Notes: generated by a model not told the origin, from the sequence alone. Positions 1 to 24,534 are shown, counted from the first letter of the stretch. The stretch is DNA of 24,534 nucleotides from a virus (IMGVR_UViG_2698536676_000006); one strand, 5' to 3'. Numbers and translations: made by a program.

Positions 1-149
1 GGTTGAGAAGCGGTGTAAGTGAACTGCAGTTGCCATGTTTTACGGCAGTGAGAGCAGAGATAGCGCTGATGTCCGGCGGTGCTTTTGCCGTTACGCACCA
101 CCCCGTCAGTAGCTGAACAGGAGGGACAGCTGATAGAAACAGAAGCCAC
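1..149 (-). CDS. insA: IS1 InsA, 5' partial (GTG start at 149, runs off the window)
   Basis: Reverse complement reads GTGGCTTCTGTTTCTATCAGCTGTCCC..., i.e. [48 protein letters not shown], the InsA N-terminus with its zinc-finger cysteines. Confidence 0.75.
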
Positions 150-204
150 TGGAGCACCTCAAAAACACCATCATACACTAAATCAGTAAGTTGGCAGCAT
201 CACC
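1..204 (-). mobile_element. IS1 left-end fragment (terminal inverted repeat plus insA 5' region); element continues left of the window
   Basis: Bases 1-204 are the exact reverse complement of 24331-24534 and match my recollection of the first 204 bp of IS1 (GGTGATGCTGCCAACTTACTGAT...CACCGCTTCTCAACC). Confidence 0.9.
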
Positions 205-557
205 TCATTCTTGATAAATATAATGTAACAGTCCCTTTAACTGTAAATATAGGGAAAGGCTTTGATATTTCTTATCTCAACAGTGTTGTTATCGGTCACA
301 AAGTAACAATCGGTGAAAATTGTTCAATAAAACCGGGGGTAACTATTGGGCTACGTGGTGATTTTAATGATATGGATATTGTTATAGGACATAATGTGAC
401 CATTGGTTGTAATGCCACCATTCTTGGTGGCAAAGTGCGTATAGGAAACAATGTCACAATAGGTGCTCATGCATTGGTATTGCATGATATTCCTGATGAT
501 TCAACATTCATCACTAAATTTCAGTCTGAAGTTATCTGCTCGTCCTCCCGCACATAA
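205..557 (+). pseudogene. Hexapeptide-repeat (left-handed beta-helix) acetyltransferase, N-terminally truncated by IS1
   Basis: The reading frame is open from the IS1 boundary; translation ...VVIGHKVTIGENCSIKPGVTIGLRGDFNDMDIVIGHNVTIGCNATILGGKVRIGNNVTIGAHALVLHDIP shows repeated [LIV]-G-x-x-x-x hexapeptides. The tool ORF 372..557 is only the part after an internal Met. It sits where P2 carries Z/fun, after the tail fibre assembly gene. Confidence 0.6.
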
Positions 558-1138
558 CCCTGATTCATCAGCTCTGGCCATACGATATCCGGAGCTGTAC
601 TGGTGTCAATTCTACTCACTAATACTCTGTATTTTCTCCAGGAATCCAGTTGTGAATTTTCCTCGTTTGTTGCTATTTCAAGATTAACTGCATCCTGCAG
701 AATTGCGATGTTATCTGTTGCCTCCTGGATCAACCTTGCCTTTTTCTCTTCCGCTTCCCGTATCCGAAACAGCTTTTCTGCTTCCTCATCCTTCACCCAG
801 GATACGCCGTCCCACTTCTGATATTCCCCTGCTGGCGACAACCAGGTGACATTCTCTGGTAGCGGTCCGGGTTCAGAAATAAACAACGCGTCCCCCGATG
901 CCACGTCATAGACCGTTTTACCACGATGGTCTTCAACAATATTCCACGATTCATTTTCACTGTTAAAAATTGCCACAAAGCCAGCAGGAATTTCCGGTGG
1001 GGCGATATCTGTAGAATTAGCTGGCAGCCCTGTATGAGGTGGAATATATGCGTCACCTTCACCAATAAACTCATTAGTTCCGGCCAGCAGGTTATAAATT
1101 TTTACAGTACGTGATTGTTCACTCATTCTGAATGCCAT
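521..1138 (-). CDS. Tail fibre assembly protein (P2 gpG / lambda Tfa-like chaperone)
   Basis: 205 aa; C-terminal ...[23 protein letters not shown] is typical of Tfa chaperones; start codon overlaps the tail fibre stop (TAATG) directly downstream of the fibre gene. Confidence 0.85.
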
Positions 1139-3795
1139 TATGCAAGCCTCACAATATAATTAAATGCGATGTTTTTAACGGTGTTTTCCGCGTTACCAGC
1201 AGCGTTAACGGTGATGGTATGTCCATGTGAACCAATCGCAACAGAGTGCGTATGAGCGCCAATACCAACAGTGTGTGCATGTGCCCCAGCACTTGTAGCG
1301 GTACCTGATACTGAGTGGGTATGTGCGCCAGAAGAAGGCACAGTTCCATTCCCCACCACCGTGCCACTTGATGCACCATCCAGCCAGTCGAAATTCATAC
1401 CGCCACTGTTTGGTCTCCTTAATGGAACGGTATGAGTATGTGCGCCAGCACTATTTGCAGTACCAGATACATTGTGGGTATGTGCACCTGTGTTATTCGT
1501 TGATTTAGTACCGTAATCAAACGAAGATGTGGTTTTCGTACCCAAATCCGTATTGGATGCGCTGGCGCTGTGGGTGTGCGATTTAATGCCATCCTGTTCC
1601 AGAGACAATACGTCCCGACCACTGGCGGGTTTGCCCTTGATTGTCCAGCCACGCATATCCGGGATCACGCCTGACGGATAAGCGGCTGCAAGTTTCGGGT
1701 ATGCAGATTTGTCAAAAGTCTGTCCCTGCATCAGGGCGTAACCAGACGGCACAGTATCTGATGGCCACGGCAGCGGAACACCTGGCGGAAACGCTTCAAT
1801 ATTTGCCGAGCCGTCAAATTTTACGCCGTTAATTGTCCTTGCCGTTTTCAGCTTTGTTGCTGTAGCAGCATTGCCGGATAGTTCGCCTGAAAGACCACCG
1901 CTGAATGTCTGTTTCGCCGCCCATGTCTGAGCTTCGTCGATAATTGGCACACGTCTTGTCGTAATCGTGCGGCTTCCCGGATTTCCTGAAATGCGAACCA
2001 TAAAAAAGCGGTAATTCGCTTTACTTACAGTGCTGCGCCATACATGCATTGAGCGCCCCGTACCAGAATCATCACTCGGACCAACTGCGATGTTTATCAG
2101 GTTGCCATCAATGACGCCCCAGTCCATACCGTCGGGAATATTGGTCATGTTATCAAGCCGAACGGTTATCAGACTGCCCGGCACAAAATCGTAGGTCTGC
2201 CAGTCCAGGCTGGTGAGTTTTGCCACTGCGCCACCGATACCCAGATTCAGGGGAAGTGAATAAGATGTGTAAACTTCCCGCCATTCGCTCCACGAGCTGC
2301 CGGTATAAACGCGCTCAAACGTGCGACCTTTAAGGGTTGCACCTGTTCCGGCGGTTGTATAACGTTGCCATACGTTAACGCCATCAAAGCGCCTCAGCAC
2401 TTCCAGAATACCGAGTACAGTCACGCCGTTTCCGTCCAGTATTGGACCATTGGTCGCTTTACCTGTAACGCTGTAAATACCTGGTGAGGTTACATCATTC
2501 AAATCACCGTCGTAATAACGGCTTTCTGACTGGTAGCCCACTCTTGACCACGGCTCCCATTGTGGGTTCTCTGCATCCCACGAGGCCGAAAGACAGCGAA
2601 CATAAACATTTCCACGGCGGGTCGTGTAACGCTGCGTTCGCGAGTAACCACCACCTTCAAGAACTTCAAGGAGTCCCTGACCATAACTTCCTTCTTCCGG
2701 ATAGTTGCGGTCAAATGAAGCGATTGAGCCACTACTGTTTCGCCATAAACCAAGATGCTCTGCGCCTCCGAGCGTGTTCAGGTCAATGGTTGTGCTCAGG
2801 GGGCGTGTTGCAGACTGAACCTGACGCCAGTAACTCCACGGACCGTCTGAACCATTCCATGTGCCAGAAAGGTTGCGCATATAAACATTGCCTGTTCTGG
2901 TGGTGTAACGCTGCATTCCTGCAAAATTACCGCCATTGAATACCTCCAGTACACCGACTGCACCGTCTTCAGGGAAATTTTTAGCAGCCGTCGCGTTAGT
3001 GGATGTAGCTTTAGACCAGACGCCAAGATAAGCCTTAACGGGACCAAATGTATTCAAGTCAGCATCAAGCGGCATTTCGCCATTGTTTTTCATAAACGTC
3101 AGGCTGGTAACGCCAACATTGTCCAGAAAAGCGCCCTTATCTGGAATATCGTCACCGTTCTGGTCTTTCTGCATACGTTTTTCAGCATTGTCATAGGCTG
3201 CTTTTACTGCCTTTGGCGTTGCCGCCAGCTCTTCACTGGTGCTGTTTGTTGCGCTACTTAACTGAGTAAAACCTTTTTCTGTCAGCGTGGCGTCAGGATG
3301 GCGGCGGGATTGCTCATGCTCTGCGATTTTGTCATCGACGTAATCCTGCGTCGCCATCACTGTGCTGGCATCAATACTCAGCTCAACGGACGCTACGTTG
3401 CTGACAGTAATAACCATGCGGCAGGTCTGCGCGCGCCCGGAGCCTTCAGCGAGTTCAGGCTTATAGCTTTCCGCCATGTTAGCGACCGCAATCAGTGTTC
3501 CGGCATCGTCATACAGACCCAGCTCACGCATCCAGAAGCCGCCCACTTCTGGCGGTACAACCAGTTCAGCCACGATATAGTTTTTATTCTTGTTATCCAC
3601 GCTGACTTTATTCAGAGCGTGACGCCAGACCTCATGCACCAGTTTCGTCTGACCGGCATCCGGCACCGGCAATTTGCCATTACCGTCACCCACGGCCATT
3701 GCAGACAGAGTTACTTTTTTCCCGCCGGGGACAGTGGCGGCTGCCAGCTTCGCGGCTCCGGCAGTAGTGATAGCGGTTTTAAATTTCGTGCTCAT
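1138..3795 (-). CDS. Tail fibre protein (P2 gpH-like N-terminus, mosaic His-rich C-terminal tip)
   Basis: 885 aa; N-terminus [20 protein letters not shown]...[10 protein letters not shown]...[29 protein letters not shown] matches the conserved P2 gpH N-terminal domain; three internal repeats of LEV-x-GG...QRYTTR-x-GNVY-x-R; C-terminal GAHTH-x-VSG repeats. Confidence 0.9.
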
Positions 3796-3805
3796 TGTTT
3801 CTCAC

Positions 3806-4333
3806 TTATCCGGGATAAACAGTAATAACATCACCATCACAGACCACACCGCCTGTATACAGATAGCCGGGAATGTCCTGGATAATGTTCAGGCCGATAA
3901 GGTGGCGACTTGCGGGTTTGGCATCGGCAATCAGCCGTTCCATTTCCAGATACATTTCCTCGGTCACACCACTGTCCAGCGTGCCAACATCAACCTTGAA
4001 TGTTCCGGGTTCGCCGTCGAACTCCCACCACTCAGACACGCGAATGAGGTATCCCAGCGGCTCAATGGCCCGGCGCAGTGCGCTGATGGTCCCTTTGTGT
4101 CGGTGTATCAGCCATGCATCACGAATAACCTGTCGCTTTGTCTCTTCCGGCCAGTTGCGATCCCAGCGGTCAACGGAAAATGCCCAGGCGAGATAAGGCA
4201 GCAGATGCACCGGGCAGGTGTCCGGTGACCACAGCGTGTTGAGGTCTACCGGGATGTTTGTAATGCGCGCTCCGACAGCTTCGGCGCAACGCATGAAATT
4301 GCTGGCTGATGGTGGTAACAGTGAATTACTCAT
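3806..4333 (-). CDS. Baseplate assembly protein I (P2 gpI-like)
   Basis: Follows gpJ in P2 order. I prefer the ATG at 4331-4333, preceded by AAGGTGG and lying 2 nt after the gpJ stop, over the tool's GTG start at 4366. Confidence 0.8.
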   Translation of the reverse strand: MSNSLLPPSASNFMRCAEAVGARITNIPVDLNTLWSPDTCPVHLLPYLAWAFSVDRWDRNWPEETKRQVIRDAWLIHRHKGTISALRRAIEPLGYLIRVSEWWEFDGEPGTFKVDVGTLDSGVTEEMYLEMERLIADAKPASRHLIGLNIIQDIPGYLYTGGVVCDGDVITVYPG

Positions 4334-5222
4334 TACGCCCACCTTCGCTGATGGTGAATGACTCACAGCGCGCCGCCTGTATGTCGCTGATGGCCATATT
4401 CTGTGTGGGTTCGATTATCTCCACGCGTTGCACACCGTGCACATGCAGTGCGGCAGCAATGGCGGACAACGCCACGTCCTGACCGATAAGCCCCTGCTCA
4501 GCCAGCCACTTCCTGAACGACGATTCAGCCGCAGCCAGAATAGGTTCGGATTCCGGGCCGGGATAAAAGTACAGTTTTGCATTCAGCCGCCATGTCACGA
4601 TTCTGGCGCTCTGTACGGTCAGGCGGTCGGCCACCGGGCGGGTATCCTCTGCATTCAGAACGGCACGAACGGTATTAAGCAACGCCTCCGTTGCTGTGCC
4701 GTCGCCTTCAGTGGACAGGATGGAAACCGTCACACAGGCCGGAGACGGGCTGATGGCCCGCGCATCACGCACCAGACCGCTGGCGCTGCGTGCAAAATAC
4801 TCGTATGCACCTGACGGGCCAGCAACACTCAGGCCGTCGTACGCCCGCTGCGCCCGCAGTCTCAGCGAGGTGTCGCTCTCCATCACCGCGTCGGTGGTAT
4901 CCGTTGCCGGAGTGATAACCAGGCGCTTTGTGTTCATATTGCCCGCGAGGTTGTCCAGGTCTGTCCCGGCGCTGTGGCTTAACATGCAGGCGCGTGCACC
5001 CTCATTGACCCGCTGGCGTAACAGCATTTCACGAAACGCTGTTGTCTGGGCGATAACGTTCAGGGGTTCCGATTCCAGCTCCAGCGCAGCGGAAACGGCT
5101 TCACGCTGTTCGGCGGGATAAGCTGCAATCATCATGGCCTTTGTGTCAGCCAGAATTGCTTCAAAGTCAGGCTCCGCGATGATGGCGGGTTCTGGTAACT
5201 GGGAAAGGTCAACGGCGGGCAT
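4326..5222 (-). CDS. Baseplate assembly protein J (P2 gpJ-like)
   Basis: 298 aa; MPAVDLSQLPEP...LESEPL...RQRVNE...RPVADRLTVQSA...LHVHGVQRVEI is collinear with P2 gpJ as I recall it. Confidence 0.9.
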   Translation of the reverse strand: MPAVDLSQLPEPAIIAEPDFEAILADTKAMMIAAYPAEQREAVSAALELESEPLNVIAQTTAFREMLLRQRVNEGARACMLSHSAGTDLDNLAGNMNTKRLVITPATDTTDAVMESDTSLRLRAQRAYDGLSVAGPSGAYEYFARSASGLVRDARAISPSPACVTVSILSTEGDGTATEALLNTVRAVLNAEDTRPVADRLTVQSARIVTWRLNAKLYFYPGPESEPILAAAESSFRKWLAEQGLIGQDVALSAIAAALHVHGVQRVEIIEPTQNMAISDIQAARCESFTISEGGRNE

Positions 5223-5225
5223 GAT

Positions 5226-5576
5226 TTACTCCCTCAGCGTGATGGTTAACTCAACATTCTGCATGGTCTGCATGACAGTGCCCGACAGCGTCACCCCGGC
5301 GCGGCCTCCCGCTTTCCAGACAACGTCAATGGCATCCAGGGCAATGCGGGGTTCCCATCGTGTCAGCGCAATCACGGCAGCACTCATGCATTGCAGACGC
5401 GTGGTGTTATTCATGGGTTCGTCAATCAAATCAGGCACAAGGCTGCCATATTCCCGTCGCATAACCCGGCTTGCCAGCGGGGTGGTCAGGATGTCCCTGA
5501 CTGACTGTTTCAGGTGCTCCATATCGTTCAGGTTTCCCGTTCCGTCCGGGTTCATTCCTGTGTAGCGGGTTGTCAC
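5226..5576 (-). CDS. Baseplate wedge protein W (P2 gpW / gp25 family)
   Basis: 116 aa, MTTRYTGMNPDG...SRVMRREYGSL...; GTG start overlaps the upstream stop (GTGA). Confidence 0.85.
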   Translation of the reverse strand: MTTRYTGMNPDGTGNLNDMEHLKQSVRDILTTPLASRVMRREYGSLVPDLIDEPMNNTTRLQCMSAAVIALTRWEPRIALDAIDVVWKAGGRAGVTLSGTVMQTMQNVELTITLRE

Positions 5577-5980
5577 TGTGGGCCTCCTGTCGAATCGCTG
5601 CCGCCTTTCACGCCACCGTGTTTATGCGTATGCACTGTAATGCCGTTTGAGGTGAAGTTGCCGCCGCTGTGCGTGATATTGCCGCTCATCTTTCCTCCTT
5701 TTGTGACGTCAAGCGTCGCCGTTCTCAGAAGGTTTGTGCATTCCACGACGGGCGTATCCAGTTTCACGCTGACGGATGCCTGTAAAGTGGCCGTTTTCAT
5801 GCCGCTGGCGCTCAGTGCGCCAGCGTCCGCGTCGTAGCGGAACACCGCGCCGTCCGGCGCGCTGATCACGATTTCTTTCAGGCTTTTGCCGGGGGCCGGA
5901 CTGGCATCACTCCACAGGCTGCCAATTATCATGGCGGTTACGGCGATCTGTGCCGTCATAACTGGTATTCGTGCGCGCAA
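5573..5980 (-). pseudogene. Baseplate spike gpV, C-terminal fragment, fused out of frame to the capsid remnant
   Basis: ISAPDGAVFRYDADAGALSASGMKTATLQ...KLDTPVVECTN...GGKMSGNITHSGGNFTSNGITVHTHKHGG resembles the C-terminal half of P2 gpV; the N-terminal half is missing. Confidence 0.7.
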
Positions 5981-6218
5981 TCGGCCCGGTGGTGTCCAGG
6001 AGAACTTTTTCGCCTTTCTGGTCAGTTACACCGATTACATTAATTCTTTTCGTAAATTCGGTACTTTCCTTTGAAGCGTTTTCAAAACGCTGTTGTACCG
6101 ATGGATTGACGGTAAATCGCGATACCAGCGCAGAAACCGGGATATTGTTAAGCGACGCCTGCTGCGTCATGTAGCAGCCCAGCTTGTTACGGGCATTATC
6201 TGACATCACCAGATTCAT
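5907..6218 (-). pseudogene. Major capsid protein gpN, N-terminal fragment (about 90 codons), junction with gpV at roughly 5930-5980
   Basis: RFTVNPSVQQRFENASKESTEFTKRINVIGVTDQKGEKVLLDTTGPIARTNTSYDGTDRR parallels the P2 gpN N-terminus; homology stops and the frame overlaps the gpV fragment, implying loss of N(3')-M-L-X-Y-K-R-S-V(5'). Confidence 0.7.
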
Positions 6219-6241
6219 AAAAAATTTGCTCCTTTGTCTTA

Positions 6242-7078
6242 TCAGAAGTCAGCCAGCTGATCGGAGGCTGCGCCCGTTGCGGTGAACCGGTTCTGTGGAT
6301 CGCCGTCCTGCGTGCGCAGTTTTTCCTTCAGTGCTGTCAGCTCTGTGGTCAGTGACGTGATTTTCTGACGGTCCTGCTTATGGCGGGCTTCCAGCACATT
6401 AAAACGGTCGATAATGTCGGCCTGTGACGTTGCGACGCCTTCCACCGCTTCCTGAATACGGGAAAAACTGGCGTCATCCGCTTTGCGGCCACGGCCAATA
6501 ATCCCCATTACGCGGTTAAACCACTGGGTGCCTTCTTCCTGGCGTTGTTCTGCCATTTCGATGATTTCAGACTCAATGGCTTCGGAGATAAGCGGCGCTT
6601 CACCCTGGATACTGTTGAACGTCATCACCGCCTGACGTTGCTGTGCCGTGAATTTCAGGCGCTCAGTGCCCAGGCTTGCCGGGGTGTCGGTCATCGCCAG
6701 CCCGACCAGATAGGCGCGCCCGTTAACGGAGAACTGCGGGTGCAGTTCGATACTGGAATAGATTTTCTTGCCGTCAGCGACAAGCTGCTTCATGCGCTCG
6801 GTCGGTTCGATTTCTGCATACAGCGCAGTACGTCCGGCCAGCGGGCCTTCCGTAATATCTTCCGTACTCAGCGCGGTGACATCGCCCATTGCGGAAAATT
6901 CGCTTGACGGGCATGGCGAGAGATAGTGCTCAACGTTCACGCGGGCAGCGTAAACATCCGGGTTGAAGTTCTCGGCGGCTTCACGCAGATGTACCGGGCT
7001 GATTTCGCGGCCATCAACAGTTGATCCGGAGACAGCCACGCGAAACTTTTTGCGGGATGTCTTTTTTTCATTAGCCAT
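6242..7078 (-). CDS. Capsid scaffolding protein (P2 gpO-like)
   Basis: MANEKKTSRKKFRVAVSGSTVDGREISP...YLVGLAMTDTPASLGTE resembles P2 gpO; ATG at 7076-7078 with GAGGGG upstream is preferred over the tool start at 7111. Confidence 0.85.
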   Translation of the reverse strand: MANEKKTSRKKFRVAVSGSTVDGREISPVHLREAAENFNPDVYAARVNVEHYLSPCPSSEFSAMGDVTALSTEDITEGPLAGRTALYAEIEPTERMKQLVADGKKIYSSIELHPQFSVNGRAYLVGLAMTDTPASLGTERLKFTAQQRQAVMTFNSIQGEAPLISEAIESEIIEMAEQRQEEGTQWFNRVMGIIGRGRKADDASFSRIQEAVEGVATSQADIIDRFNVLEARHKQDRQKITSLTTELTALKEKLRTQDGDPQNRFTATGAASDQLADF

Positions 7079-7232
7079 AGTTTTTGCCCCTCTGACTGGT
7101 TCTTCAGTCATGATGGCAAAGCGTAACAGGCTGATACAAAGGGCTTTTGTTGTAAGAAAACGGCCAGAACAGGGGGTTAAGGAGAACGGTTTCGCGCGCG
7201 GGTAATCTTCCTGTAATTACTCAGGGGGAGCA

Positions 7233-8495
7233 ATGATTCAGGACGCTTTTGTGCGCCAGCGTGCGCGGCAACTTTACTGGCAGGGTTATCCGCCCGCAGA
7301 AATATCACGTCTGATGGGAATAAACCCGAACACGATTTATGCGTGGAAAAAACGCGACCAGTGGGATGAAACGCCCCCCGTGCAGCGTGTCACGCAGTCC
7401 ATCGATGCGCGCCTCATCCAGCTTACTGAAAAACAGAATAAAACAGGCGGTGACTTTAAGGAAATAGACCTGCTGACCCGGCAGCTTAAAAAGCTGCATG
7501 ATGGCCAGCCGGATGTGATGGCCGCAGGAAAGAAAGGCCGGGCGAAAAAACTTAAAAATCATTTCACGCCGGAACAGATTGCCGCACTGCGGGAAAAAAT
7601 CATCAGCAGGCTGGAGTGGCATCAGCGGGGCTGGTTTGACTCCCTGACACTTTGCAGGGAAGCCGGGATACGTAACAGGATGATCCTGAAATCCCGACAG
7701 ATTGGGGCGACCTGGTATTTTGCACAGGAAGCTCTGCTGATGGCGCTGCGTGACGATGTGGCGCAACCTTACCAGCGTAACCAGATTTTTTTGTCTGCGT
7801 CGCGTCGTCAGGCGTTCCAGTTTAAAAGCATTATTCAGAAGGTCGCGGCTGAAGTTGATGTGGAGCTGAAAGGGGGCGATAAAATCATCCTCTCCAACGG
7901 CGCAGAGCTGCATTTTCTCGGCACTTCTGCTGCGTCGGCACAGTCCTATACGGGCAATTTTTATTTTGATGAATTTTTCTGGGTCAGTCGCTTTGCTGAA
8001 CTGCGCAAGGTGGCTGGCGCTATGGCAACCCTCAGCGGACTGCGGCGCACCTACTTCTCCACGCCATCCACCGAAACGCACGAGGCGTACGCCTACTGGA
8101 ACGGCGACCGCTGGAACGAGAAAAAGGCCTCGCATAAACGCCAGCGTTTTTCTGTGGACTGGAAAACGCTGCATAACGGGCTTATCTGCCCTGACCGGAC
8201 TTGGCGGCAAATTGTCACGCTGGAAGATGTGGTTAATCACGGCTGGAAACACACCGATATCGACGAAATTCGTGATGAAAACACCGAAGACGAGTTCCTC
8301 AATCTCTATATGTGTGAGTTTGTCCGCGAAGGGGAATCGGCATTTAACCTGAATATCCTGATTGGCTGCGGTGTTGACGGATACGACGACTGGAAAGACT
8401 GGAAACCTTTTGCTCCCCGCCCGATGGGGAATCGTCCGGTATGGATTGGGTATGACGCAAACGGCAGCAGTGGCAACGGCGACATGCCAGCTTGA
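7233..8495 (+). pseudogene. Terminase ATPase subunit (P2 gpP-like), C-terminally truncated
   Basis: 420 aa with N-terminal ...LYWQGYPPAEISRLMGINPNTIYAWKKRDQWDE; P2 gpP is about 590 aa as I recall. The ORF ends shortly after VWIGYDA, and portal Q, cos and the tin/old region expected between P and A are absent. Confidence 0.75.
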
Positions 8496-8560
8496 TGTTG
8501 GTGGAGCCGTCGTCGATACAAATTTTCATGTCGCTTTTCCTTATGTTGATTAATTAATCG

Positions 8561-8670
8561 TTTACGGGATTCTGAAATCCCGTTTTTGCCTGTTTTATGC
8601 GCGCTTCATATATCGCGGCGCGTTTTTTGCTCATTTACGGGATTTGTGAATCCCGTTTCTGTCTGTTTTT
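8561..8670 (+). repeat. Two diverged direct repeats (8561-8596, 8634-8670), each an 8-bp-stem hairpin ACGGGATT-N4-AATCCCGT followed by a T-run
   Basis: Read directly: tttacgggattctgaaatcccgtttttgcctgtttt and tttacgggatttgtgaatcccgtttctgtctgttttt. Confidence 0.6.
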
Positions 8671-11428: not shown

Positions 11429-11434
11429 AGTGAT

Positions 11435-14074: not shown

Positions 14075-14085
14075 CGCAACGCCCT

Positions 14086-14364: not shown

Positions 14365-14374
14365 AAAGCACCTG

Positions 14375-14725: not shown

Positions 14726-14746
14726 GATGGTGCTCTGTTCATTGTT

Positions 14747-14950: not shown

Positions 14951-14966
14951 CCCACTAGCCTCCTGA

Positions 14967-15173: not shown

Positions 15174-15248
15174 AGTGGTATATTGTGATCATCTAATAGC
15201 TCGTGAAATCATTTGGTATCAAAAAAGATACCTGTCAAGGTTTTTTGT
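15174..15248. promoter_or_regulatory. Immunity-switch intergenic region between divergent early operon and repressor; 18-bp palindrome GGTATC-aaaaaa-GATACC (15215-15232) as candidate operator
   Basis: Perfect palindrome read directly; a TTGACA hexamer on the minus strand (15233-15238) abuts it. Confidence 0.5.
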
Positions 15249-15653: not shown

Positions 15654-15668
15654 TAGTAGGGAGGTGAC

Positions 15669-16319: not shown

Positions 16320-16348
16320 TCTTACTTGAGCTAAATTGAGGTAATGAT

Positions 16349-16696
16349 ATGAAAGTAAAAAAGGTTCAACTATTAGTTACTTTTTTATCTATGTTTTCTT
16401 TTTCCGCCGTCGCAATGCCTTTTAAAACTATTGAACGTGAGAGTTTCAATGGGGTATGGCCATTTAATACTGATGAGGTTCAATTACAGTGTCTTGATGG
16501 TAATCCTTATGTGATGAATTTTGACGATAATAAGTTATATGCACTTACAGGTTTGGCTCGAATAAAAGGTAAAACATTTGGTGCGTTACCGTTAGATAAC
16601 AATAATCCATTTTGGCTAGATAATGATGCCGCCCCAGGGTTAAAAAAGAGCCTGGGGGATGTCACTAAGGCTGCATTTGATTTATGTGATAAGTAA
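16349..16696 (+). CDS. Cargo gene: small secreted protein with signal peptide and two Cys
   Basis: MKVKKVQLLVTFLSMFSFSAVA-MP signal-peptide-like N-terminus; GAGG Shine-Dalgarno; Cys in QCLDG and DLCDK. Possibly DUF2511-like; unverified. Confidence 0.65.
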   Translation: MKVKKVQLLVTFLSMFSFSAVAMPFKTIERESFNGVWPFNTDEVQLQCLDGNPYVMNFDDNKLYALTGLARIKGKTFGALPLDNNNPFWLDNDAAPGLKKSLGDVTKAAFDLCDK

Positions 16697-16701
16697 CTAA
16701 A

Positions 16702-17703
16702 ATGTCGGTTCGTAAGATTCCATCAGGTAAATGGCTTTGCGAATGTTATCCCTACGGGGCATCGGGAAAACGCATTCGTAAACAGTTTGCGACAAAAAGT
16801 GAGGCGCTCTCTTATGAGCGCCGTTTAATGAATAGTAGAGTTGGAGACGAGTTTCAAGATGGTTCTGGTCCTCGTCTTTCTGAGTTGATTGCTCGTTGGT
16901 TTGAGATGTACGGTAAAACCTTGTCCTCTGGTGCAGAGCGCAAAGTCAAACTTGAGGCGATTTGTTCCAGGCTGGGAGATCCATTTGCTTCTCAGTTTGA
17001 CAAAAATATGTTTGCCACTTATCGGGAAAGAAGGTTATCAGGAGAGTGGAATCCCAAGGGGAAGAAAAAACTTAGTGAAGCAACCGTTAATCGCGAGCAG
17101 TCATATCTACATGCTGTTTTTGCCGAACTGAAGCGCCTTGGGGAGTGGTCTGGTGAAAACCCCCTGACTGGTATTCGCAAGTTTCGTGAGGAAGAAAAGG
17201 AACTGGCGTTTCTGTATGTAGATGAGATTGAACGCCTTCTGATTGCGTGTGATGAGTCACGGAATAAAGATTTGGGGGTTGTTGTCCGTATTGGGCTTGC
17301 GACTGGTGCTCGGTGGAGTGAAGCAGAAGGGTTAAAGCAATCTCAAGTACTGCCCGGTCGAATCACATTTGTTAAAACTAAAGGAAAGAAGAACCGCACT
17401 GTACCGATTTCACCTCAATTGCAGGCTATGCTTCCCAAAAAACGAGGAGCGCTATTTTCACCATGTTATGAGGCTTTTGACGCTGCAATTAAGAGAGCGA
17501 AGATCGAGCTTCCTGATGGGCAATTAACTCATGTGCTACGTCACACGTTTGCCAGTCATTTTATGATGCGGGGCGGAAATATTCTTGTGTTGCAAAAAAT
17601 ACTGGGGCATAGCGATATAAAAATGACTATGCGTTATGCGCATTTTGCTCCAGGTCATTTAGAGGCTGCTGTTGAATTGAACCCTTTTGACAATAGAGGG
17701 TAA
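16702..17703 (+). CDS. int: P2-type tyrosine integrase
   Basis: 333 aa; TGARWSEAEGLK, ITFVKTKGKKNRTVPIS, HVLRHTFASHFMMRGGNILVLQKILGH, YAHFAPGHL align with P2 Int as I recall it. Confidence 0.9.
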   Translation: MSVRKIPSGKWLCECYPYGASGKRIRKQFATKSEALSYERRLMNSRVGDEFQDGSGPRLSELIARWFEMYGKTLSSGAERKVKLEAICSRLGDPFASQFDKNMFATYRERRLSGEWNPKGKKKLSEATVNREQSYLHAVFAELKRLGEWSGENPLTGIRKFREEEKELAFLYVDEIERLLIACDESRNKDLGVVVRIGLATGARWSEAEGLKQSQVLPGRITFVKTKGKKNRTVPISPQLQAMLPKKRGALFSPCYEAFDAAIKRAKIELPDGQLTHVLRHTFASHFMMRGGNILVLQKILGHSDIKMTMRYAHFAPGHLEAAVELNPFDNRG

Positions 17704-17809
17704 AAAGTGGCGATAAAAAGTGACAATAGATTCAAATGGCGTTGTATAGAGCCATTTTCAAAGTTAATAAAATCATAAGGTTATGATTTATAAATGGTGG
17801 TTGATAGTT

Positions 17810-17864
17810 TTTAAAATCCCTCGGCGTTCGCGCTGTGCGGGTTCAAGTCCCGCTCCGGGTACCA
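17810..17864 (+). tRNA. 3' fragment (about 55 nt, from the anticodon loop to CCA) of tRNA-Leu(UAA), leuZ-like; integration-site core, not a complete tRNA
   Basis: TTTAAAATCCCTCGGCGTTCGCGCTGTGCGGGTTCAAGTCCCGCTCCGGGTACCA: T-arm GCGGG-TTCAAGT-CCCGC, long variable arm, acceptor 3' strand plus ACCA; no 5' half upstream. Confidence 0.65.
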
Positions 17865-17905
17865 TGGGAAAGACAAGAATAATCAAAGCAATAAGCAGTG
17901 TCGTG

Positions 17906-17930
17906 AAACCACCTACGGGTGGTTTTTTTG
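17906..17930 (+). terminator. Rho-independent terminator (AAACCACC-tacg-GGTGGTTT plus T-run)
   Basis: Read directly from sequence. Confidence 0.6.
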
Positions 17931-17964
17931 TGCCTGAAATTCACGCCCTGTGCATATCCTGTGC

Positions 17965-18846
17965 TCACGGGGTGCAATGAGCCGCAATCTCCAGCCTGGC
18001 AATGCCGAATCGAACGTGTCGCCTCCAGCATAGAGAACCAGGCCGCTTTGCCTGTTTTCCGGTACTCTTCCGGGAAGGGTGGCCTGCTGAGCAAGTTGTA
18101 ATGCTCTGGCCGCCCTTAGTACAAAGTTGCTTAATTCGTGCAATCACCTCATCTCTGTACTTCTGGTGTCCGCGCATAGCCCTTGGATGGGCAATTCTGA
18201 AACAGATTGTATTACCTGTTTTGAACTCCCACAGCTTCCCCGGAATGACTGAAGAAGTCTCATAACCGCCCAGCTCAGTAAGCACCTGTTTAATGATGTA
18301 GTCTGTTCTCCGGGCTCCGGATGCAAAGATCATGAAATCAGGCTCAAGGTGTTTAATTTGTACCGCCAGCAGCTTCAGCGAGGCTAATATGACTTCCTGC
18401 ACTTCATTTTGAGGGCGATTGAGAGGGGTCAGTCCGTCGTAATCCCACGCCAGTAGATTGGCATACACGATAGCCTGAGGAGGAATATTAAGCTCCCGGG
18501 CCAGCCTGAAATGATATTGCGTGAAGCGGCTACGTGATTTGAGGTTGGTGGTGCCATCATTTTGTACCGGAAGATGTTTCCTGTAACGATCTACAGCTTC
18601 TTCAACCACCTGCCCGATGGTGACGTCAGGCATAAGTCCCAACACCCGTGATATCGTATTCTTACCATTCAGCGTATTCCAGCCTGCGGTTTCACGTCTA
18701 ACCAGCATGATTTTTACCGGTGAATGCCAGTATTCTTCAAACGGCACGGGTAAAAAGACGCCTGAGTATTTATCTTCATTCAGGTTAAATGACTGGGCGT
18801 CAACTTCCTGTAATATCCGTTTGTACGCGTCTAATAGCCTTTCCAT
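17965..18846 (-). CDS. Hypothetical protein (293 aa) between the tRNA fragment and the P4-type integrase; C-terminal 50 aa low-complexity, possibly non-native
   Basis: Long ORF, no family recognised; Cys/Arg/Ser-rich tail. Confidence 0.55.
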   Translation of the reverse strand: MERLLDAYKRILQEVDAQSFNLNEDKYSGVFLPVPFEEYWHSPVKIMLVRRETAGWNTLNGKNTISRVLGLMPDVTIGQVVEEAVDRYRKHLPVQNDGTTNLKSRSRFTQYHFRLARELNIPPQAIVYANLLAWDYDGLTPLNRPQNEVQEVILASLKLLAVQIKHLEPDFMIFASGARRTDYIIKQVLTELGGYETSSVIPGKLWEFKTGNTICFRIAHPRAMRGHQKYRDEVIARIKQLCTKGGQSITTCSAGHPSRKSTGKQAKRPGSLCWRRHVRFGIARLEIAAHCTP

Positions 18847-18926
18847 TCTTCAATCCTGCCCCGTAATAAAAACACCTTCAGATATATATTATTTTCATGA
18901 TATCAATCAGATATATGAGGATAAAT

Positions 18927-20126
18927 ATGCAAAAATCCTTCCGATTCACCAATTCATCCATCAAAGCCCTTCCGGCAAACACAGATACCCGATCTACAGA
19001 GCTTGAGGTATCCGATACTGAGGTCATTGGCCTCAAATGCCTCTCAGGTCGAACGGGTAACAAACGTTTCCTCCTGCGCTACACATTCCACGGTACCAAA
19101 AAAAGTATCAGTATTGGCAGATTCCCTGAAATTGATGTGGGGACAGCCCGTCAGATAGCTCGTCGTCACAAGGAGGCGATTGCACTGGGAAATGACCCTA
19201 AGGCAGAACGCGATAATTATCGTGCTATGCCAACGCTTAGTGAGTTTTTTCACCAGACCTATGTTCCGTTCATCAAACGCCATAAAAAGTCCTGGGATAA
19301 GGATGTTCAGCGTTTCACGCAATACATTGAACCTTGTCTGGGGAAGATACGTTACTGTGACCTTCGGGCCCGGGAAATCCAGCAGGTGCTTTTCGACATG
19401 CTTGAGGGTCGTATTCACGGGCAGCAATATGCGCCGTCTACCTGTAACAGAGCCCTTGCTATTCTGAAAACGATGGGGCGTTATGCGTTGCGACAGGATG
19501 TGCTGGAAAAGAATGAAGCCGATAAGATCCCTTTACTGAAAGAGAATAATCAGCGGACGCGCTTTTTTGATGCTGATGAGATCAGGCGCATTCTTGACGC
19601 TGCTACCCAATATCCCAACAAAGCTGCCGGGGGATTGATAGCCATGTTGTTGTTAACCGGTACACGCAAAACAGAAATGCTTAATGTCAGGCATGAACAT
19701 ATCGACCGGGCCAATCGTACTCTGTTCATTCCTTATACAAAAAATGGTCGCAGTCGGACGGTATATCTAAGCGATGCCGCATTATCGATTATTGATGCTA
19801 TCCCACGAGTTGGCAGTAATCCGTATCTGTTCGCCATTAAGGATAATGGCAAACCGATATCGGAACCCCGATGGGCATATGAAAAAATACTGGCACAGTG
19901 CGGTATAGACAAGAATGAAGTCTGTTTTCACACCACACGTCATTCTGTTGCCTCTTTACTGGTTTCGAGTGGTCAATTCAGCCTGTATGACGTTAAAGCC
20001 CAACTGGCGCATGCCAGTATTCAGAGTACAGAACGTTACGCGAAATTAACACCGGAACGTATGCGTCAGACAGGGCAGGGAGTGACTGACCTGCTTCTGA
20101 ATACTGCGGCTACGAAGCAGATGTGA
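18927..20126 (+). CDS. int: P4-family tyrosine integrase (genomic-island type)
   Basis: N-terminal arm-binding domain (...GLKCLSGRTGNKRFLLRYTFHGTKKSISIGRFPEIDVGTARQIARRHKEAIALGNDPKA) and catalytic region (...TRHSVASLL...ERYAKL); ATG at 18927 with GAGG Shine-Dalgarno preferred over tool start 18897. Confidence 0.85.
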   Translation: MQKSFRFTNSSIKALPANTDTRSTELEVSDTEVIGLKCLSGRTGNKRFLLRYTFHGTKKSISIGRFPEIDVGTARQIARRHKEAIALGNDPKAERDNYRAMPTLSEFFHQTYVPFIKRHKKSWDKDVQRFTQYIEPCLGKIRYCDLRAREIQQVLFDMLEGRIHGQQYAPSTCNRALAILKTMGRYALRQDVLEKNEADKIPLLKENNQRTRFFDADEIRRILDAATQYPNKAAGGLIAMLLLTGTRKTEMLNVRHEHIDRANRTLFIPYTKNGRSRTVYLSDAALSIIDAIPRVGSNPYLFAIKDNGKPISEPRWAYEKILAQCGIDKNEVCFHTTRHSVASLLVSSGQFSLYDVKAQLAHASIQSTERYAKLTPERMRQTGQGVTDLLLNTAATKQM

Positions 20127-20162
20127 CTACTTTTTAGCAAACTATAAATATGGAGAATGAGG

Positions 20163-20399
20163 ATGCATTTAAAATGCCCACAGTGTGGCAGTTGTAATAC
20201 ATTGATAAGTTCAGCAGGAAAACTGCCATCGATAACCGATAATAAACACTCTGGGTATATTAGCCTGGAGTTTTTACCTGAAATACTGAAAGAAATTATT
20301 AAGGCTATTAAAAAACTATTTGGATTCCTTGAACAGTGTGAAAGGAATAATGCTCCAGTGCTTATCTGTATGGACTGTGGATATTATGAAAGAATTTAA
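20163..20399 (+). CDS. Small zinc-ribbon protein (CPQCGSC ... CMDCGYYE)
   Basis: Two CxxC pairs about 60 residues apart; GGAG Shine-Dalgarno; has its own terminator. Confidence 0.6.
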   Translation: MHLKCPQCGSCNTLISSAGKLPSITDNKHSGYISLEFLPEILKEIIKAIKKLFGFLEQCERNNAPVLICMDCGYYERI

Positions 20400-20446
20400 A
20401 TAGAAAACCAATAACTGTAAATAATAGTTATGCGGATGTATAAAAA

Positions 20447-20476
20447 CCTCGATACGTTAATCGTATCGGGTTTTTT
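20447..20476 (+). terminator. Rho-independent terminator (CGATACG-ttaat-CGTATCG plus TTTTTT)
   Basis: Read directly from sequence. Confidence 0.6.
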
Positions 20477-20494
20477 GTTTATGAGGATTATTCA

Positions 20495-20866
20495 ATGAAA
20501 TTTGTCTCGAACTGGCAAGACCTGCCGTCGCTCCTTCTTCCGGAGTCAGTAATGAGTCTGTTGAAAACAGAGCTGGTACTCCCATTTGAAGATGAATACT
20601 CTGCAATGAGTTTCTGGGATGAAGTCGGGGTGACATTAATATATGTCGAGCCCGATGATGTACCTGAAGATATTAAAGCGCAGGTATTAAATGTGATTCA
20701 TCAGTTAATTGCAAATCCAGAATTTGTAGTCCGTCTGACAGATGACTATTACCTGATGCTTTCTGTTACGGAAGATAACGGGAACGGTATTTATCTGTTA
20801 TTTCACCCCGATTGCCCTCTGAAGGGTATTGATTTATTAATTTCTATGGCCGAATCACGCTATTAA
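20495..20866 (+). CDS. Operon gene 1: acidic 123-aa hypothetical protein
   Basis: GAGGA Shine-Dalgarno; Asp/Glu-rich; AT-rich codon usage. Confidence 0.65.
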   Translation: MKFVSNWQDLPSLLLPESVMSLLKTELVLPFEDEYSAMSFWDEVGVTLIYVEPDDVPEDIKAQVLNVIHQLIANPEFVVRLTDDYYLMLSVTEDNGNGIYLLFHPDCPLKGIDLLISMAESRY

Positions 20867-20891
20867 ACACAAGCAAAACCAGGAACGCAAA

Positions 20892-21425
20892 ATGAGTAAA
20901 TCAAAATTAGTTAAAAATAATGTTGAGTCAGTTTCGAAGGAGATTAAAAATGAGGCAGAGGTTATTCATGAAAATCTCAGTGCAGATGAACAAACATTAT
21001 CTGATGTAAAAGACTATCAGTTGCTCATTGAAACAGGCCAGGCAGAAAAAATCAGTCCTAAGGCAAGTGGTATGCTGACATGGCAACTGGCGATATCAGA
21101 GGTGGATAATGAACTTTATCTTCGTCTGGTGGCAAATGGCTGTGGAGGGTTGTTCTCTAAGGACTGGATCTCACTTTCAAAGATTGCAACTGTTCTGGAA
21201 ACACAACCTGCTACCGGCTTCTCATCCGGAGTATTCAGGCCGCTATTCAAAGGGGCAAGCGCCAACAATGCAGGTTTTCTGGCTGCTGTTTTACGCTCCC
21301 CGGATATATGTCTGCTGGAGGCACATCCAGAGAAGTTATTTACTCATGTATTATACCCGGACTGGAGGGAGCGGTTGAATAAACTTAATACGATCAGTAG
21401 CCAGGAAAAGATTACAGAGGATTAA
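20892..21425 (+). CDS. Operon gene 2: 177-aa hypothetical protein
   Basis: AGGAA Shine-Dalgarno; 25-bp gap from gene 1. Confidence 0.65.
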   Translation: MSKSKLVKNNVESVSKEIKNEAEVIHENLSADEQTLSDVKDYQLLIETGQAEKISPKASGMLTWQLAISEVDNELYLRLVANGCGGLFSKDWISLSKIATVLETQPATGFSSGVFRPLFKGASANNAGFLAAVLRSPDICLLEAHPEKLFTHVLYPDWRERLNKLNTISSQEKITED

Positions 21426-21497
21426 TTTATTTCCTGCACTGTTATACAACCAGAAATCACCACACACCACTATTTACTTTCTAAAGGAAAATTTATT

Positions 21498-21932
21498 ATG
21501 CAAACCCAATATGCCTTAAAACAGGCAGGATTAACTCTGCCTGTTACTAAAGAATTTCAGCAGCATATTACTACTCTTCTGGCAAATCAGGTTTTACAAA
21601 AAATAACTGAGGCAGTGGTTATTAATTTCCGTGATCCGGACTACAGTGCAGAATCCGGGGGCTTTCATCCCGTTGAAATACGGTTTATCCGTAAGAATAA
21701 TGAATGGTATTTTGATTATGTCACAGATTTTAGTTATATGGGGCGTGTCTACCCTGAGCTGGAAAAAGAAATTGATTTTTGCTGGTCGGGGAATTATGTC
21801 TTCCATTATCTGATTGGGGATATTTCACTGGCAGCAGAGAGGAATGAACTCTGGTCCCTGTGGGAGCGTAATTTTATGGAGTATCTCTCTATGGGGATTT
21901 ACCGGGTAACGGTAACTGTGGAAAGTTGTTGA
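21498..21932 (+). CDS. Operon gene 3: 144-aa hypothetical protein (Trp/Tyr/Phe-rich)
   Basis: AAAGGA Shine-Dalgarno; 72-bp gap with no terminator before it. Confidence 0.65.
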   Translation: MQTQYALKQAGLTLPVTKEFQQHITTLLANQVLQKITEAVVINFRDPDYSAESGGFHPVEIRFIRKNNEWYFDYVTDFSYMGRVYPELEKEIDFCWSGNYVFHYLIGDISLAAERNELWSLWERNFMEYLSMGIYRVTVTVESC

Positions 21933-22045
21933 CCCGTTATGAACAGGAAGAAAGCGGGCGGCTTTGTAATCTACTGCATGTGGCGTGCATCACAGCATGG
22001 AGATGATGTCTCTTTTTCCTAGCTGTTCGCATAAACAAGTGCAGA

Positions 22046-22076
22046 CACGGGGGATCTCAGATCCCTCGTGGTTTTT
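22046..22076 (+). terminator. Rho-independent terminator closing the three-gene operon (CACGGGGGATCT / AGATCCCTCGTG then GTTTTTG)
   Basis: Read directly from sequence. Confidence 0.55.
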
Positions 22077-22233
22077 GCCCCCTATGGAGCATTCTCCTGT
22101 AGCAGGGTGATAACGGTTAATCCATTACCCCAACTACAGTATTACACCGGTAATAAATGTTCATGAATACAGTTAGTTATGTGGGTTTTGAGGTGGGCTA
22201 TGTCATCGTTGACGATAACTGAAGGTTTTACAG

Positions 22234-22461
22234 ATGTATAAAACTCGCGGTGAAAGGATCGCAGAAAGGCTGTGCTGGATATTACTTCAACTGTATACCG
22301 GTAATACGGTATCGGTTAATGATATATGTCAGCGTTTCGCGGTCAGTCGCCGAACCGGACAGCGTGATTTGTTGAGAGTTGAAACTGTAACGGAAACTAT
22401 TTCACCTGGAAGGGTAAGGCTGGCAAGTTTGATAAGGGAACGAGTTAGACGAAATTTTTAA
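22234..22461 (+). CDS. Small HTH protein (75 aa) resembling the N-terminal DNA-binding domain of a WYL/DeoR-type regulator
   Basis: ERIAERLCWILLQLYTGNTVSVNDICQRFAVSRRTGQRDLLRVE parallels [40 protein letters not shown] of the WYL protein at 23423-24325. Confidence 0.5.
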   Translation: MYKTRGERIAERLCWILLQLYTGNTVSVNDICQRFAVSRRTGQRDLLRVETVTETISPGRVRLASLIRERVRRNF

Positions 22462-22496
22462 TCGAATCCATATCAATACTATAAAATATGAAAATT

Positions 22497-22522
22497 AACG
22501 GGAGTAAATATATACTCCCGTT
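22497..22522. terminator. Hairpin between convergent genes (AACGGGAGTA-N6-TACTCCCGTT), T-rich on both sides
   Basis: 10-bp perfect stem read directly. Confidence 0.5.
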
Positions 22523-22542
22523 ATAATGCAACCTTTTTTTAA

Positions 22543-23361
22543 CTACTCAAATGATATTAATTTAGGTGCGACAGTGTTTTTATGATGTGTTGAATTTGCA
22601 AGATTAATAATATCATGAAATGATTTCATGTCGTCGTCAGTGATTTCTAGGGCTGGATCAGCTAAATCGGCACAGGTAACATTTAACCAGTGTGTTAATG
22701 AATCAATCCTGTTTGAAGTAATATATTCAGTGTGACCAATATTCCACTTCCAGTTGATTATCCGAGCAGGTCTGAATCTCACCTCCCGAACCCCAATTGG
22801 CGTTACTGACTCTACGAGAGGGTATATCGTGTTAAGTACTTTATCATGTTCACTGTAGATATTTAAATGCCCCATTTTTGAACCGTAAGCCATTTTCATT
22901 ATGTTCTCTGTATAACTTGTTATTGGGGTGGCTCCGGCCATAGAGATTGTTAAGAGAATATTATCATTTTTAATATAGGGTAATGTATTGTTTATTAATC
23001 GAGTCCCTAAAGAATGACCCATTATGATCACATTACGCTTTTCTTTAACGTATATCTCGTTTATTACGTGTGCTAATTTTTCTCTGTTATTAACTGCTGC
23101 TTTCGTTGCATTATACCAGGCCTGACGCGCTTTAAATGGAATGGAGATTGATGACAATAAAGGAGATGTTCTCAGGGGGAAGAGAGTATATAACCCCCAC
23201 TTGTTCGCTATGTCAGAACTTAATATGGATAGTAGATTTGCCGATTCCCATTTATAGTATCTGACATCAAGGCCACACCCTGCTTTAATTCGGTTAAACC
23301 ATGATATATCATTTTCGGTCAGAAACCCTGATACAACAAGAAGAACCGGGCATTTTTTCAT
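22543..23361 (-). CDS. Alpha/beta-hydrolase-fold serine hydrolase (esterase/lipase-like), candidate effector
   Basis: 272 aa; IIMGHSLGTRL carries a G-x-S-x-G nucleophile elbow; GGAG Shine-Dalgarno; AT-rich. Confidence 0.7.
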   Translation of the reverse strand: MKKCPVLLVVSGFLTENDISWFNRIKAGCGLDVRYYKWESANLLSILSSDIANKWGLYTLFPLRTSPLLSSISIPFKARQAWYNATKAAVNNREKLAHVINEIYVKEKRNVIIMGHSLGTRLINNTLPYIKNDNILLTISMAGATPITSYTENIMKMAYGSKMGHLNIYSEHDKVLNTIYPLVESVTPIGVREVRFRPARIINWKWNIGHTEYITSNRIDSLTHWLNVTCADLADPALEITDDDMKSFHDIINLANSTHHKNTVAPKLISFE

Positions 23362-23422
23362 GGTAACTCCATTTTTTAGCTTACAAAAATAGCACTCAAT
23401 GAAAATTATATTATCCGTGTCA

Positions 23423-24325
23423 TTACGGGGCGTTACTTGGCTGGGTGTAACGTTTCAGTGCGGATTGTATATCTTCAGCAAGTTGTTGACGGATTGAGGC
23501 CGGTTGTATTACTTCGACATCCGGTATCCAGTATTTCATTAAAGGCATTATCTGATCTGTGTGTGTTACACGTGATATCACCAGTAAATCGCCAGACCGG
23601 GAAGTATGAATTATTTCCTGTCCTGGCAATAGATGACGGTGGGTAAACCACGGAGCAACATGTGCGGAAACTGAAATAAGAGCTTCGATAAGGTCTTCGC
23701 TATACCAGATACCATCTGTCTTTTCTATTTTTTCATTAATTTCGGGGATTATCCTGAAAGAGATATTACTCATGCAAACGTCTTTGACAGATGAGATAAC
23801 AAAGCTTTTTAATGTACTGTCATGGGCGGCAGCGAGATACCACAATCCGTTGTCATTAACCAGTCTGTATGGCTCAACAGCCCGAAACTCTTTATCTTTG
23901 TAATTAAAATTTACTTTCTTCTGTGACAGGATGGCATCGGATAATACATTCAGAATTGACATGAATGATCCGCAGTTTTCGTATGGACGTTGTTTTATCA
24001 GAAACGGGTTGTTTTTCGTGTTACCTAACAAAATACTCAGTAGTCTGTCATCCCAGCGAGGGAACAGCCCTTCAATACCCAGGATGCGCGTGAAATGACG
24101 TAAATCAGCATTGCTGCGTTGACCGAGAACACCGTCAGACAGGCGATAGCGACCATTTTGTCGAATCAGATTAAGATAGGACAGGCGCTGAGTAAGATCA
24201 CGACGGATAGTTTTTTCGCAAACGTTAAATTCCTCAGATAACTCCCGGACGGCTAGTGACTCACCATTGTTCAGGCGAGTTAATATCAATCCGAGTCGAT
24301 ATCCAAGTTTATCGTGCTTACCCAT
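23423..24325 (-). CDS. WYL-domain transcriptional regulator (HTH-WYL architecture, BrxR/CapW-like)
   Basis: 300 aa; N-terminal HTH ([35 protein letters not shown]), central LWYL motif ([12 protein letters not shown]); ATG lies 5 bp from the IS1 end. Confidence 0.75.
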
Positions 24326-24330
24326 TCATT

Positions 24331-24534
24331 GGTGATGCTGCCAACTTACTGATTTAGTGTATGATGGTGTTTTTGAGGTGCTCCAGTGGCTTCTGTTTCT
24401 ATCAGCTGTCCCTCCTGTTCAGCTACTGACGGGGTGGTGCGTAACGGCAAAAGCACCGCCGGACATCAGCGCTATCTCTGCTCTCACTGCCGTAAAACAT
24501 GGCAACTGCAGTTCACTTACACCGCTTCTCAACC
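24331..24534 (+). mobile_element. IS1 left-end fragment; element continues right of the window
   Basis: GGTGATGCTGCCAACTTACTGATTTAGTGTATGATGGTG...CACCGCTTCTCAACC matches the IS1 5' end. Confidence 0.9.
24386..24534 (+). CDS. insA: IS1 InsA, 5' partial
   Basis: GTG GCT TCT GTT TCT ATC AGC TGT CCC..., the InsA N-terminus. Confidence 0.75.

Follow-up and report, generated by a model that had tools for sequence, protein, structure and literature searches.

Separate arrivals best account for two inverted IS1 copies bracketing a decayed prophage and a pipolin arm in enterotoxigenic Escherichia coli

The stretch IMGVR_UViG_2698536676_000006, analysed here over its whole length of 24,534 bp and referred to as the window, begins and ends within copies of the insertion sequence (IS) IS1. 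With high confidence, these ends belong to two distinct full-length IS1 copies, identical in sequence but opposite in orientation, which arrived independently of each other and bracket a decayed P88-like prophage together with the left arm of a pipolin. The window equals NZ_LR883050.1 1990232-2014765, with exact string identity over 24,534 bp, in the chromosome of the enterotoxigenic E. coli (ETEC) strain E925. It is thus a stretch of this lineage-1 chromosome, or of a near-identical clone, and adjoins the glyW-cysT-leuZ tRNA cluster. E925 belongs to ETEC lineage L1, features the O6 antigen and CS1+CS3+CS21, originates from Guatemala (2003), and was finished by PacBio RSII and Illumina sequencing (PMC8085198).

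The two terminal arms of the window, 1-204 and 24331-24534, are exact reverse complements (204 nt, 100% complementary), just as the original prediction, made from the sequence alone, had described them. The left inverted repeat (IRL) of IS1, GGTGATGCTGCCAACTTACTGAT, forms the inner end of each arm (182-204 on the minus strand, 24331-24353 on the plus strand) and abuts the interior on both sides. Both arms are therefore insA-proximal, as was also predicted, with the IS1 bodies running out of the window:

1-204, minus strand: IRL-proximal 204 bp of the left IS1, with the IRL at 182-204; the full 768-bp element extends 564 bp past the left window edge.
24331-24534, plus strand: IRL-proximal 204 bp of the right IS1, with the IRL at 24331-24353; the full element extends 564 bp past the right window edge.

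In the E925 locus, taken as the window plus 8 kb on each side (L001), both elements are present at full length (7437-8204 and 32331-33098), each of 768 bp, identical at 768/768 positions and inverted relative to each other, and their outer flanks are unique and differ from one another. The IRL and the right inverted repeat (IRR), GGTAGTGACTCCAACTTACTGAT, match at 18 of 23 positions, and neither outer IRR end is damaged. In RefSeq, each copy is listed as an IS1 family transposase with a programmed frameshift (WP_223419586.1), and the -1 frameshift of insA-insB' was taken from this annotation. The same two-IS1 arrangement is found in E8, an independently assembled finished chromosome. With a query consisting mostly of IS1, the E925 chromosome gave at least 40 pieces, compared to 11 places in the median E. 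coli genome. By our own calculation, with 40 IS1 copies scattered at random over 4.86 Mb, neighbouring copies would lie no more than 25 kb apart in approximately 7 cases, of which half would be inverted. Although chance clearly does not account for the repeat as such, an inverted pair is an unremarkable configuration in such an IS1-rich genome.

The left copy is a plain IS1 insertion with a 9-bp target-site duplication, TCATTCTTG, which is present on both sides of the element. At the corresponding empty site of the isogenic strain B2C (locus L005), the blocks of the alignment on either side have precisely 9 bp in common (L005 14001-14009). The inner side of this junction comprises the following features:

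205-213, no strand: inner one of the two TCATTCTTG copies that make up the 9-bp target-site duplication, its outer counterpart following directly past IS1, outside the window.
207-557, plus strand: 3' fragment (approximately codons 68-181) of a hexapeptide-repeat acetyltransferase gene, prophage cargo, annotated as a partial gene and with a Hexapep Pfam match.

The insertion splits the gene of this 181-amino-acid hexapeptide acetyltransferase after codon 67, the 5' fragment being located outside the window. The gene is intact (181 amino acids) in FORC_031 and B2C and partial in E925, in line with the truncation that had been noticed before. Similarities of the protein to EpsC, CysE and WcaB are weak and all under the respective cut-offs. 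The prophage cargo acetyltransferase would consequently be inactivated by the left IS1.

The right copy differs in its junctions. Its inner flank, CCATTCATT, and its outer flank, CAGCGTGTT, do not match, and hence there is no target duplication. Of the duplications that the original prediction proposed to look for at the outer IS1 ends, one is consequently present, belonging to the left copy alone, and one is missing. In B2C, the points joined to the right IS1 are spaced by 6.36 kb (L005 40567 to ~46930), and this DNA is absent from E925. The deleted stretch holds a 108-amino-acid open reading frame (ORF), the gene of the primer-independent PolB (piPolB), a 212-amino-acid ORF, an excisionase-like HTH gene, a tyrosine recombinase gene, and the 5' part of a 376-amino-acid ORF (~60% of the gene). 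The gene truncated by the right IS1 is located on the outer (IRR) side of the element, outside the window. On the inner side stands a complete gene:

23423-24325, minus strand: intact gene of a 300-amino-acid HTH_DeoR-WYL-WCX transcriptional regulator, with the native upstream sequence replaced by IS1 from position -6.

The right IS1 ends at 24331, 5 nt from the ATG of the WYL gene (24325), which agrees with the distance of 5 bp given in the prediction. Its further statement, that IS1 disrupts a gene at each inner boundary, applies to the left side with its split acetyltransferase but not to the right, where the WYL coding sequence is intact and just its upstream region is displaced. The inner junction of the right IS1 is common to E925, FORC_031 and 254D-1; the outer junction of FORC_031 is situated 4,057 bp further out than that of E925, and IS1 abuts hsdS there. 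A fixed inner junction combined with differing outer end points means that the deletions form a nested set with one IS end as their common anchor. Intramolecular transposition of IS1 is known to result in deletions and inversions, the remaining IS being devoid of direct repeats (PMC9330008, section 5.2.1). The fixed IS end, the nested deletions and the missing duplication together make up the classical signature of an IS1-promoted adjacent deletion.

Comparison with sister strains separates the two events from each other. In B2C, both IS1 sites are empty and the interior is collinear; FORC_031 features the right IS1 and an intact acetyltransferase gene; E54 and E1739 carry the left IS1 but are organised differently on the right. 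B2C, FORC_031 and E54 retain the interior at its usual place. As strains exist with neither IS1, with the right one only, or with the left one and another right side, the two insertions are independent. Of the 5,426 complete genomes of E. coli searched, 6 have the left junction of E925 in full and 3 its right junction; the junction expected for an inverted 24-kb block (outer-left flank, IS1 and reverse complement of the inner-right flank) was complete in none of them. A net inversion of the 24-kb block was therefore rejected on the basis of the target duplications, the empty sites and the junction searches. The 24.1-kb interior has never moved or inverted in E925.

Composite transposons can arise from IS1 pairs whether these are direct or inverted, e.g., Tn9 and Tn1681, the latter being the heat-stable toxin transposon of ETEC with inverted IS1 arms. 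The block in E925 resembles these elements in that two complete IS1 copies bracket a piece of DNA, with the inverted orientation of Tn1681, and its outer IRR ends are intact, so a Tn1681-like transposon that moved into the locus as a unit of 25.7 kb might be considered. Nevertheless, the outer flanks TCATTCTTG and CAGCGTGTT are not shared and form no duplication, the left IS1 has its own, and in isogenic genomes with one or no IS1 the interior occupies an unchanged place in the chromosome. Prophage sequence carries on without a break past the left IS1 and pipolin sequence past the right one, the block was found at no other locus, and PLSDB holds no plasmid with at least 80% of the interior. 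In contrast to Tn9 and Tn1681, the arms were thus acquired separately, the interior is resident chromosome, and 25.7 kb would be very large for such an element, so that a composite transposon is ruled out with a remaining probability close to nil. An artefact of assembly, in which a single IS1 or a collapsed repeat is placed at both contig ends, had been regarded as equally conceivable by the original prediction. This would be in accordance with the symmetric stop 204 bp inside each IS1, as in contigs that break at repeats, and with a genome of about 40 or more IS1 copies. However, the finished chromosomes of E925 (PacBio and Illumina) and E8 each resolve two full copies with different unique outer flanks, and the left and right junctions recur in the 6 and 3 genomes mentioned above. 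Moreover, the two copies in E8 differ by 29 single-nucleotide polymorphisms (SNPs) and thus do not represent one collapsed copy. An artefact is consequently extremely unlikely, and the suggestion is refuted. As a candidate for the origin of the 204-bp stop, the first position at which IS1 variants diverge, in the manner of a graph assembler, was considered as well and found to be unsupported: the single variant copy compared diverges at IS1 positions 86, 127, 197 and 262 rather than at 205.

With regard to the course of events, one IS1 entered the prophage acetyltransferase gene by ordinary transposition under duplication of 9 bp, and another IS1 came to stand 5 bp upstream of the WYL gene with a loss of 6.36 kb on its IRR side, both as shown by the junctions. 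The likely mechanism of this loss would be an intramolecular (replicative) transposition of IS1 resulting in an adjacent deletion. A less likely route, concerning this single step only, is that the right IS1 lost its duplication by RecA-dependent recombination with a second, independently inserted and directly repeated IS1, one copy being located upstream of the WYL gene and the other in the 376-amino-acid ORF. The end product would be indistinguishable from that of an adjacent deletion, and the repeated IS1 insertions at this locus in other lineages as well as a conversion-like patch in E8 make recombination among copies plausible. Nevertheless, no genome was found with IS1 at just one of the two positions and an intact duplication, and FORC_031, in which the inner junction is shared but the outer one is not, shows the classic nested pattern, for which the recombination route would have to invoke one more insertion of IS1. 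The patch mentioned belongs to the right IS1 of E8 (L006 32332-33099), which has the junctions of E925 but 29 SNPs, all within IS1 positions 127-573. The ends of this element and the whole left copy are identical to E925, and the patch resembles the product of gene conversion by a different IS1 variant, or else it may be an artefact of polishing.

Some points weigh against two independent arrivals followed by an adjacent deletion. A search for intermediates in complete E. coli genomes revealed none with the right IS1 at the exact site and an intact duplication, but only other lineages with other variants at other positions; both how the 6.36 kb were lost and in which sequence the events took place are for this reason only inferred. 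In addition, the distribution of the left and right IS1 among the sister strains does not fit any single simple linear order. Finally, promoter and terminator scans upstream of the WYL gene were uninformative on the IS-free and the IS-bearing sequence alike.

Once established, the IS1 pair provides a substrate for further change: RecA-dependent recombination can flip the enclosed interval, and IS1 can delete outward from either end. The sister strains document both outcomes, deletion and inversion, and a short stretch next to the left IS1 is affected in two of them:

205-1153, no strand: 949-bp stretch with the acetyltransferase 3' fragment and the tail-fibre assembly gene, which is all that is left between the IS1 copies in E1620 and is inverted in E1433.

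According to the junctions read, E1620 has the structure outer-left flank, IS1, window 205-1153, IS1, outer-right flank, with window 1154-24330 (23,177 bp) lost beside the IRL end of the right IS1. In E1433, the identical 949 bp with the same end points lie between two exact IS1 copies and are flipped relative to both outer flanks and to E1620 (exact string identity); the duplication of the left insertion is split between the two IS1 copies as TCATTCTTG and CAAGAATGA. Given the shared end point of E1620 and E1433, a deletion followed by an inversion through recombination of the inverted IS1 copies is the most economical history. Thus, both orientations are known for the 949-bp derivative (E1620 and E1433), and only the ancestral orientation is seen for the 24.1-kb block. 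Of the IS1-bounded segment proposed as invertible or mobilisable, mobility as a unit is not supported, in view of the separate left duplication, the isogenic empty sites and the absence from plasmids; invertibility persists as a potential only, realized for 949 bp in E1433 and in none of the searched genomes for the 24-kb block. A deletion of ~16 kb extends from the IRL end of the left IS1 in E1739. In both E54 (L009 30509-31206) and E1739 (L014 15029-15726), an IS1 in opposite orientation stands directly after a 177-amino-acid ORF of the pipolin arm, at about window position 21492. The DUF2787, DUF726 and WYL genes are lost from these two strains, and their right-hand partners differ.

The behaviour of both copies corresponds to that of IS1 in every respect of substance: the same 768 bp, imperfect 23-bp ends, the insA/insB' programmed frameshift, the 9-bp duplication at a simple insertion, the lack of a duplication beside a deletion, nested deletions from a fixed end, and inversion between inverted copies. 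The closest named variant is IS1X2 (~99% identical), and the variant bears no specific IS1 name in RefSeq. Besides, the tail-fibre switches of the Gin, Cin and Hin type share with this locus a segment of the tail-fibre region between inverted repeats which occurs in both orientations in sister strains (E1620 versus E1433). In contrast to those systems, the repeats are here whole 768-bp IS1 elements instead of short sites, and the flip does not exchange tail-fibre C-termini. No serine invertase ("recombinase family") is annotated in or beside the window, and the locus thereby lacks what defines an invertase-driven switch.

The greater part of the bracketed DNA is made up of prophage:

205-17809, no strand: decayed P88-like (Xuanwuvirus, P2-type) prophage, assigned by annotation and by 94-97% collinear matches to P88, PhiR44_2 and 520873.
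16702-17703, no strand assigned: prophage integrase, by annotation.

Within the window, the prophage comprises tail-fibre and baseplate genes, a fused V'/N' remnant, scaffold, a truncated large terminase, a replication endonuclease and the cox/C switch region; the arm from tail sheath to ogr is located left of the window. Compared to H10407 and B2C, the portal, most of the capsid gene, the small terminase, and the head completion, lysis and tail completion genes are missing and the large terminase is truncated. Judged by its gene content, the prophage therefore lacks the complete set of virion and lysis genes of a functional prophage. Lineage-1 sisters which are 100% identical elsewhere feature differing internal prophage deletions (window ~5900-8600; L003 12122-12581; L005 17602-19508). 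In E925, V' and N' are fused, the large terminase is truncated and the genes from portal to ParM are lost, and there is a J'/O' fusion in FORC_031 and an I'/M' fusion in B2C. No IS is present at the internal prophage break points of E925, FORC_031 and B2C.

Left of the window and into it (L001 1-7100 and window 521-3795), ogr and D share one strand, and the FI-FII-E-T-U tail operon occupies the opposite one and points away from both D and the tail-fibre genes. An inversion of this FI-FII-E-T-U tail block was considered and rejected, as isolated P88-like phages show the same order in one collinear match of 7.2 kb. P2 differs from the P88-like phages in the arrangement of ogr-D and FI-U, and the layout of this prophage is that of the P88-like phages and hence native. 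In the H10407 relative of the prophage (L002 2950-5571), a serine invertase and an alternative tail-fibre cassette take the place of the acetyltransferase gene of the lineage-1 prophage. The tail-fibre gene in the window (1267-1488) holds imperfect direct repeats of 63 nt, 78% identical and 159 nt apart, which are probably the usual repeated collar or fibre motifs.

The prophage is followed by an attachment (att) repeat and by the part of the pipolin that is left in the window:

17810-17931, plus strand: att repeat of 124 bp between prophage and pipolin, which duplicates the 3' part of tRNA-Leu and some bases downstream of it at 96.8% identity.
17932-24330, no strand: left arm of the pipolin, assigned from piPolB at the same locus in B2C and H10407 and from PMC7385651.
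18927-20126, plus strand: pipolin integrase, by annotation and domain match.
20892-21425, no strand assigned: 177-amino-acid ORF of the pipolin arm.
22543-23361, minus strand: DUF726 gene, by annotation and domain match.

Further genes of this arm are small ORFs, DUF2787 and the WYL regulator. Three att repeats, with a myovirus prophage and a pipolin in tandem at tRNA-Leu, were described for H10407, 2014EL-1346-6 and 99-3165 (Flament-Simon et al., 2020, PMC7385651). The tRNA-Leu is located upstream of the prophage, and the window itself holds no intact tRNA. The 124-bp repeat and the upstream tRNA-Leu are consistent with the att-like repeats and the tRNA-Leu integration that characterize pipolins, and the third (right) repeat was not located. 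The island would thus share with the three described pipolins the locus, the three-att layout, the P88-like prophage and the pipolin genes (integrase, WYL regulator, type I restriction-modification). It differs from them by the absence of piPolB, the excisionase-like gene and one tyrosine recombinase, which is associated with the IS1 deletion, and by the large internal deletions of the prophage.

The polymerase gene can be followed in B2C:

L005 41317-43917, minus strand: gene of the 866-amino-acid family B polymerase piPolB in B2C, in the region deleted in E925 just right of window position 24534.

The 866-amino-acid protein of B2C features the motif KH-X8-KTRG with K613, H614, K623 and R625, the very residues published for the primer-independent PolB of E. 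coli (PMC5695915). It gave no match in Pfam, NCBIfam or PADLOC and was recognised by the published motif positions alone. Most RefSeq records list the protein as "hypothetical protein" and one as "DNA polymerase". In E925, piPolB falls within the 6.36-kb deletion and is absent, and the window accordingly holds a pipolin remnant. Judged by the genes lost, i.e., the polymerase, the excisionase-like gene and one recombinase, the pipolin would be short of genes for its own replication and excision and presumably be immobile.

The position of IS1 directly beside a regulator gene raises the question of its consequences. The WYL protein carries the same accession, WP_000515817.1, with the IS1 (E925) and without it (B2C), and the native promoter and ribosome-binding site of its gene are probably lost, as suggested by the sequence that IS1 replaces. 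No outward-facing promoter is predicted in the IS1 end, the sole promoter-like site being an inward-facing one in the IRL. PADLOC resulted in generic WYL matches only and in no defence-system model for the neighbouring genes. The part of the pipolin around the WYL gene (homologous to window 22500-24330 and beyond) is a recurrent IS1 target across strains. In the unrelated E. coli strains 1218KP, PD4, G5 and CUPF06 (L010-L013), IS1X2, IS1A and IS1B variants are inserted at four other positions around the WYL gene, and two of these four insertions directly abut hsdR or hsdM.

Such a recurrence might be adaptive instead of a target preference, with IS1 being selected for rewiring a BrxR/CapW-like regulator and the genes under its control. 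This would be in agreement with the distance of only 5 bp between IS1 and the start codon of the HTH-WYL-WCX gene, which is itself intact, and with other IS1 variants ~0.4-1 kb from the WYL gene in unrelated strains. Nevertheless, the positions and orientations of IS1 differ in each lineage, and several are accompanied by deletions of neighbouring genes, which points to decay rather than tuning; in addition, the IS1 end is without a predicted outward promoter and the neighbouring genes match no defence-system model. Selection of this kind is therefore improbable. It would be more speculative still, and we consider it very unlikely, that IS1 near the WYL gene reflects selection for turning this regulator off or on, or else the pipolin genes under its control, and that the inverted pair serves as a crude reversible switch for the intervening genes.

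Two separate IS1 insertions, the right one with an adjacent deletion, represent textbook IS1 behaviour in an IS1-rich diarrhoeal E. coli on a prophage-pipolin island that has already been described, and nothing here alters what is known of IS1. Still, the locus offers an example of how independent IS insertions can be told from a composite transposon, an inversion or an artefact by means of target-site duplications and isogenic empty sites. For those concerned with ETEC and pipolins, it presents the prophage-pipolin island at tRNA-Leu as being actively worn down by IS1 in lineage 1: the hallmark piPolB has been removed by IS1 in E925, and in sister strains in circulation the same two IS1 copies have given rise to the loss of 23 kb and to an inversion.

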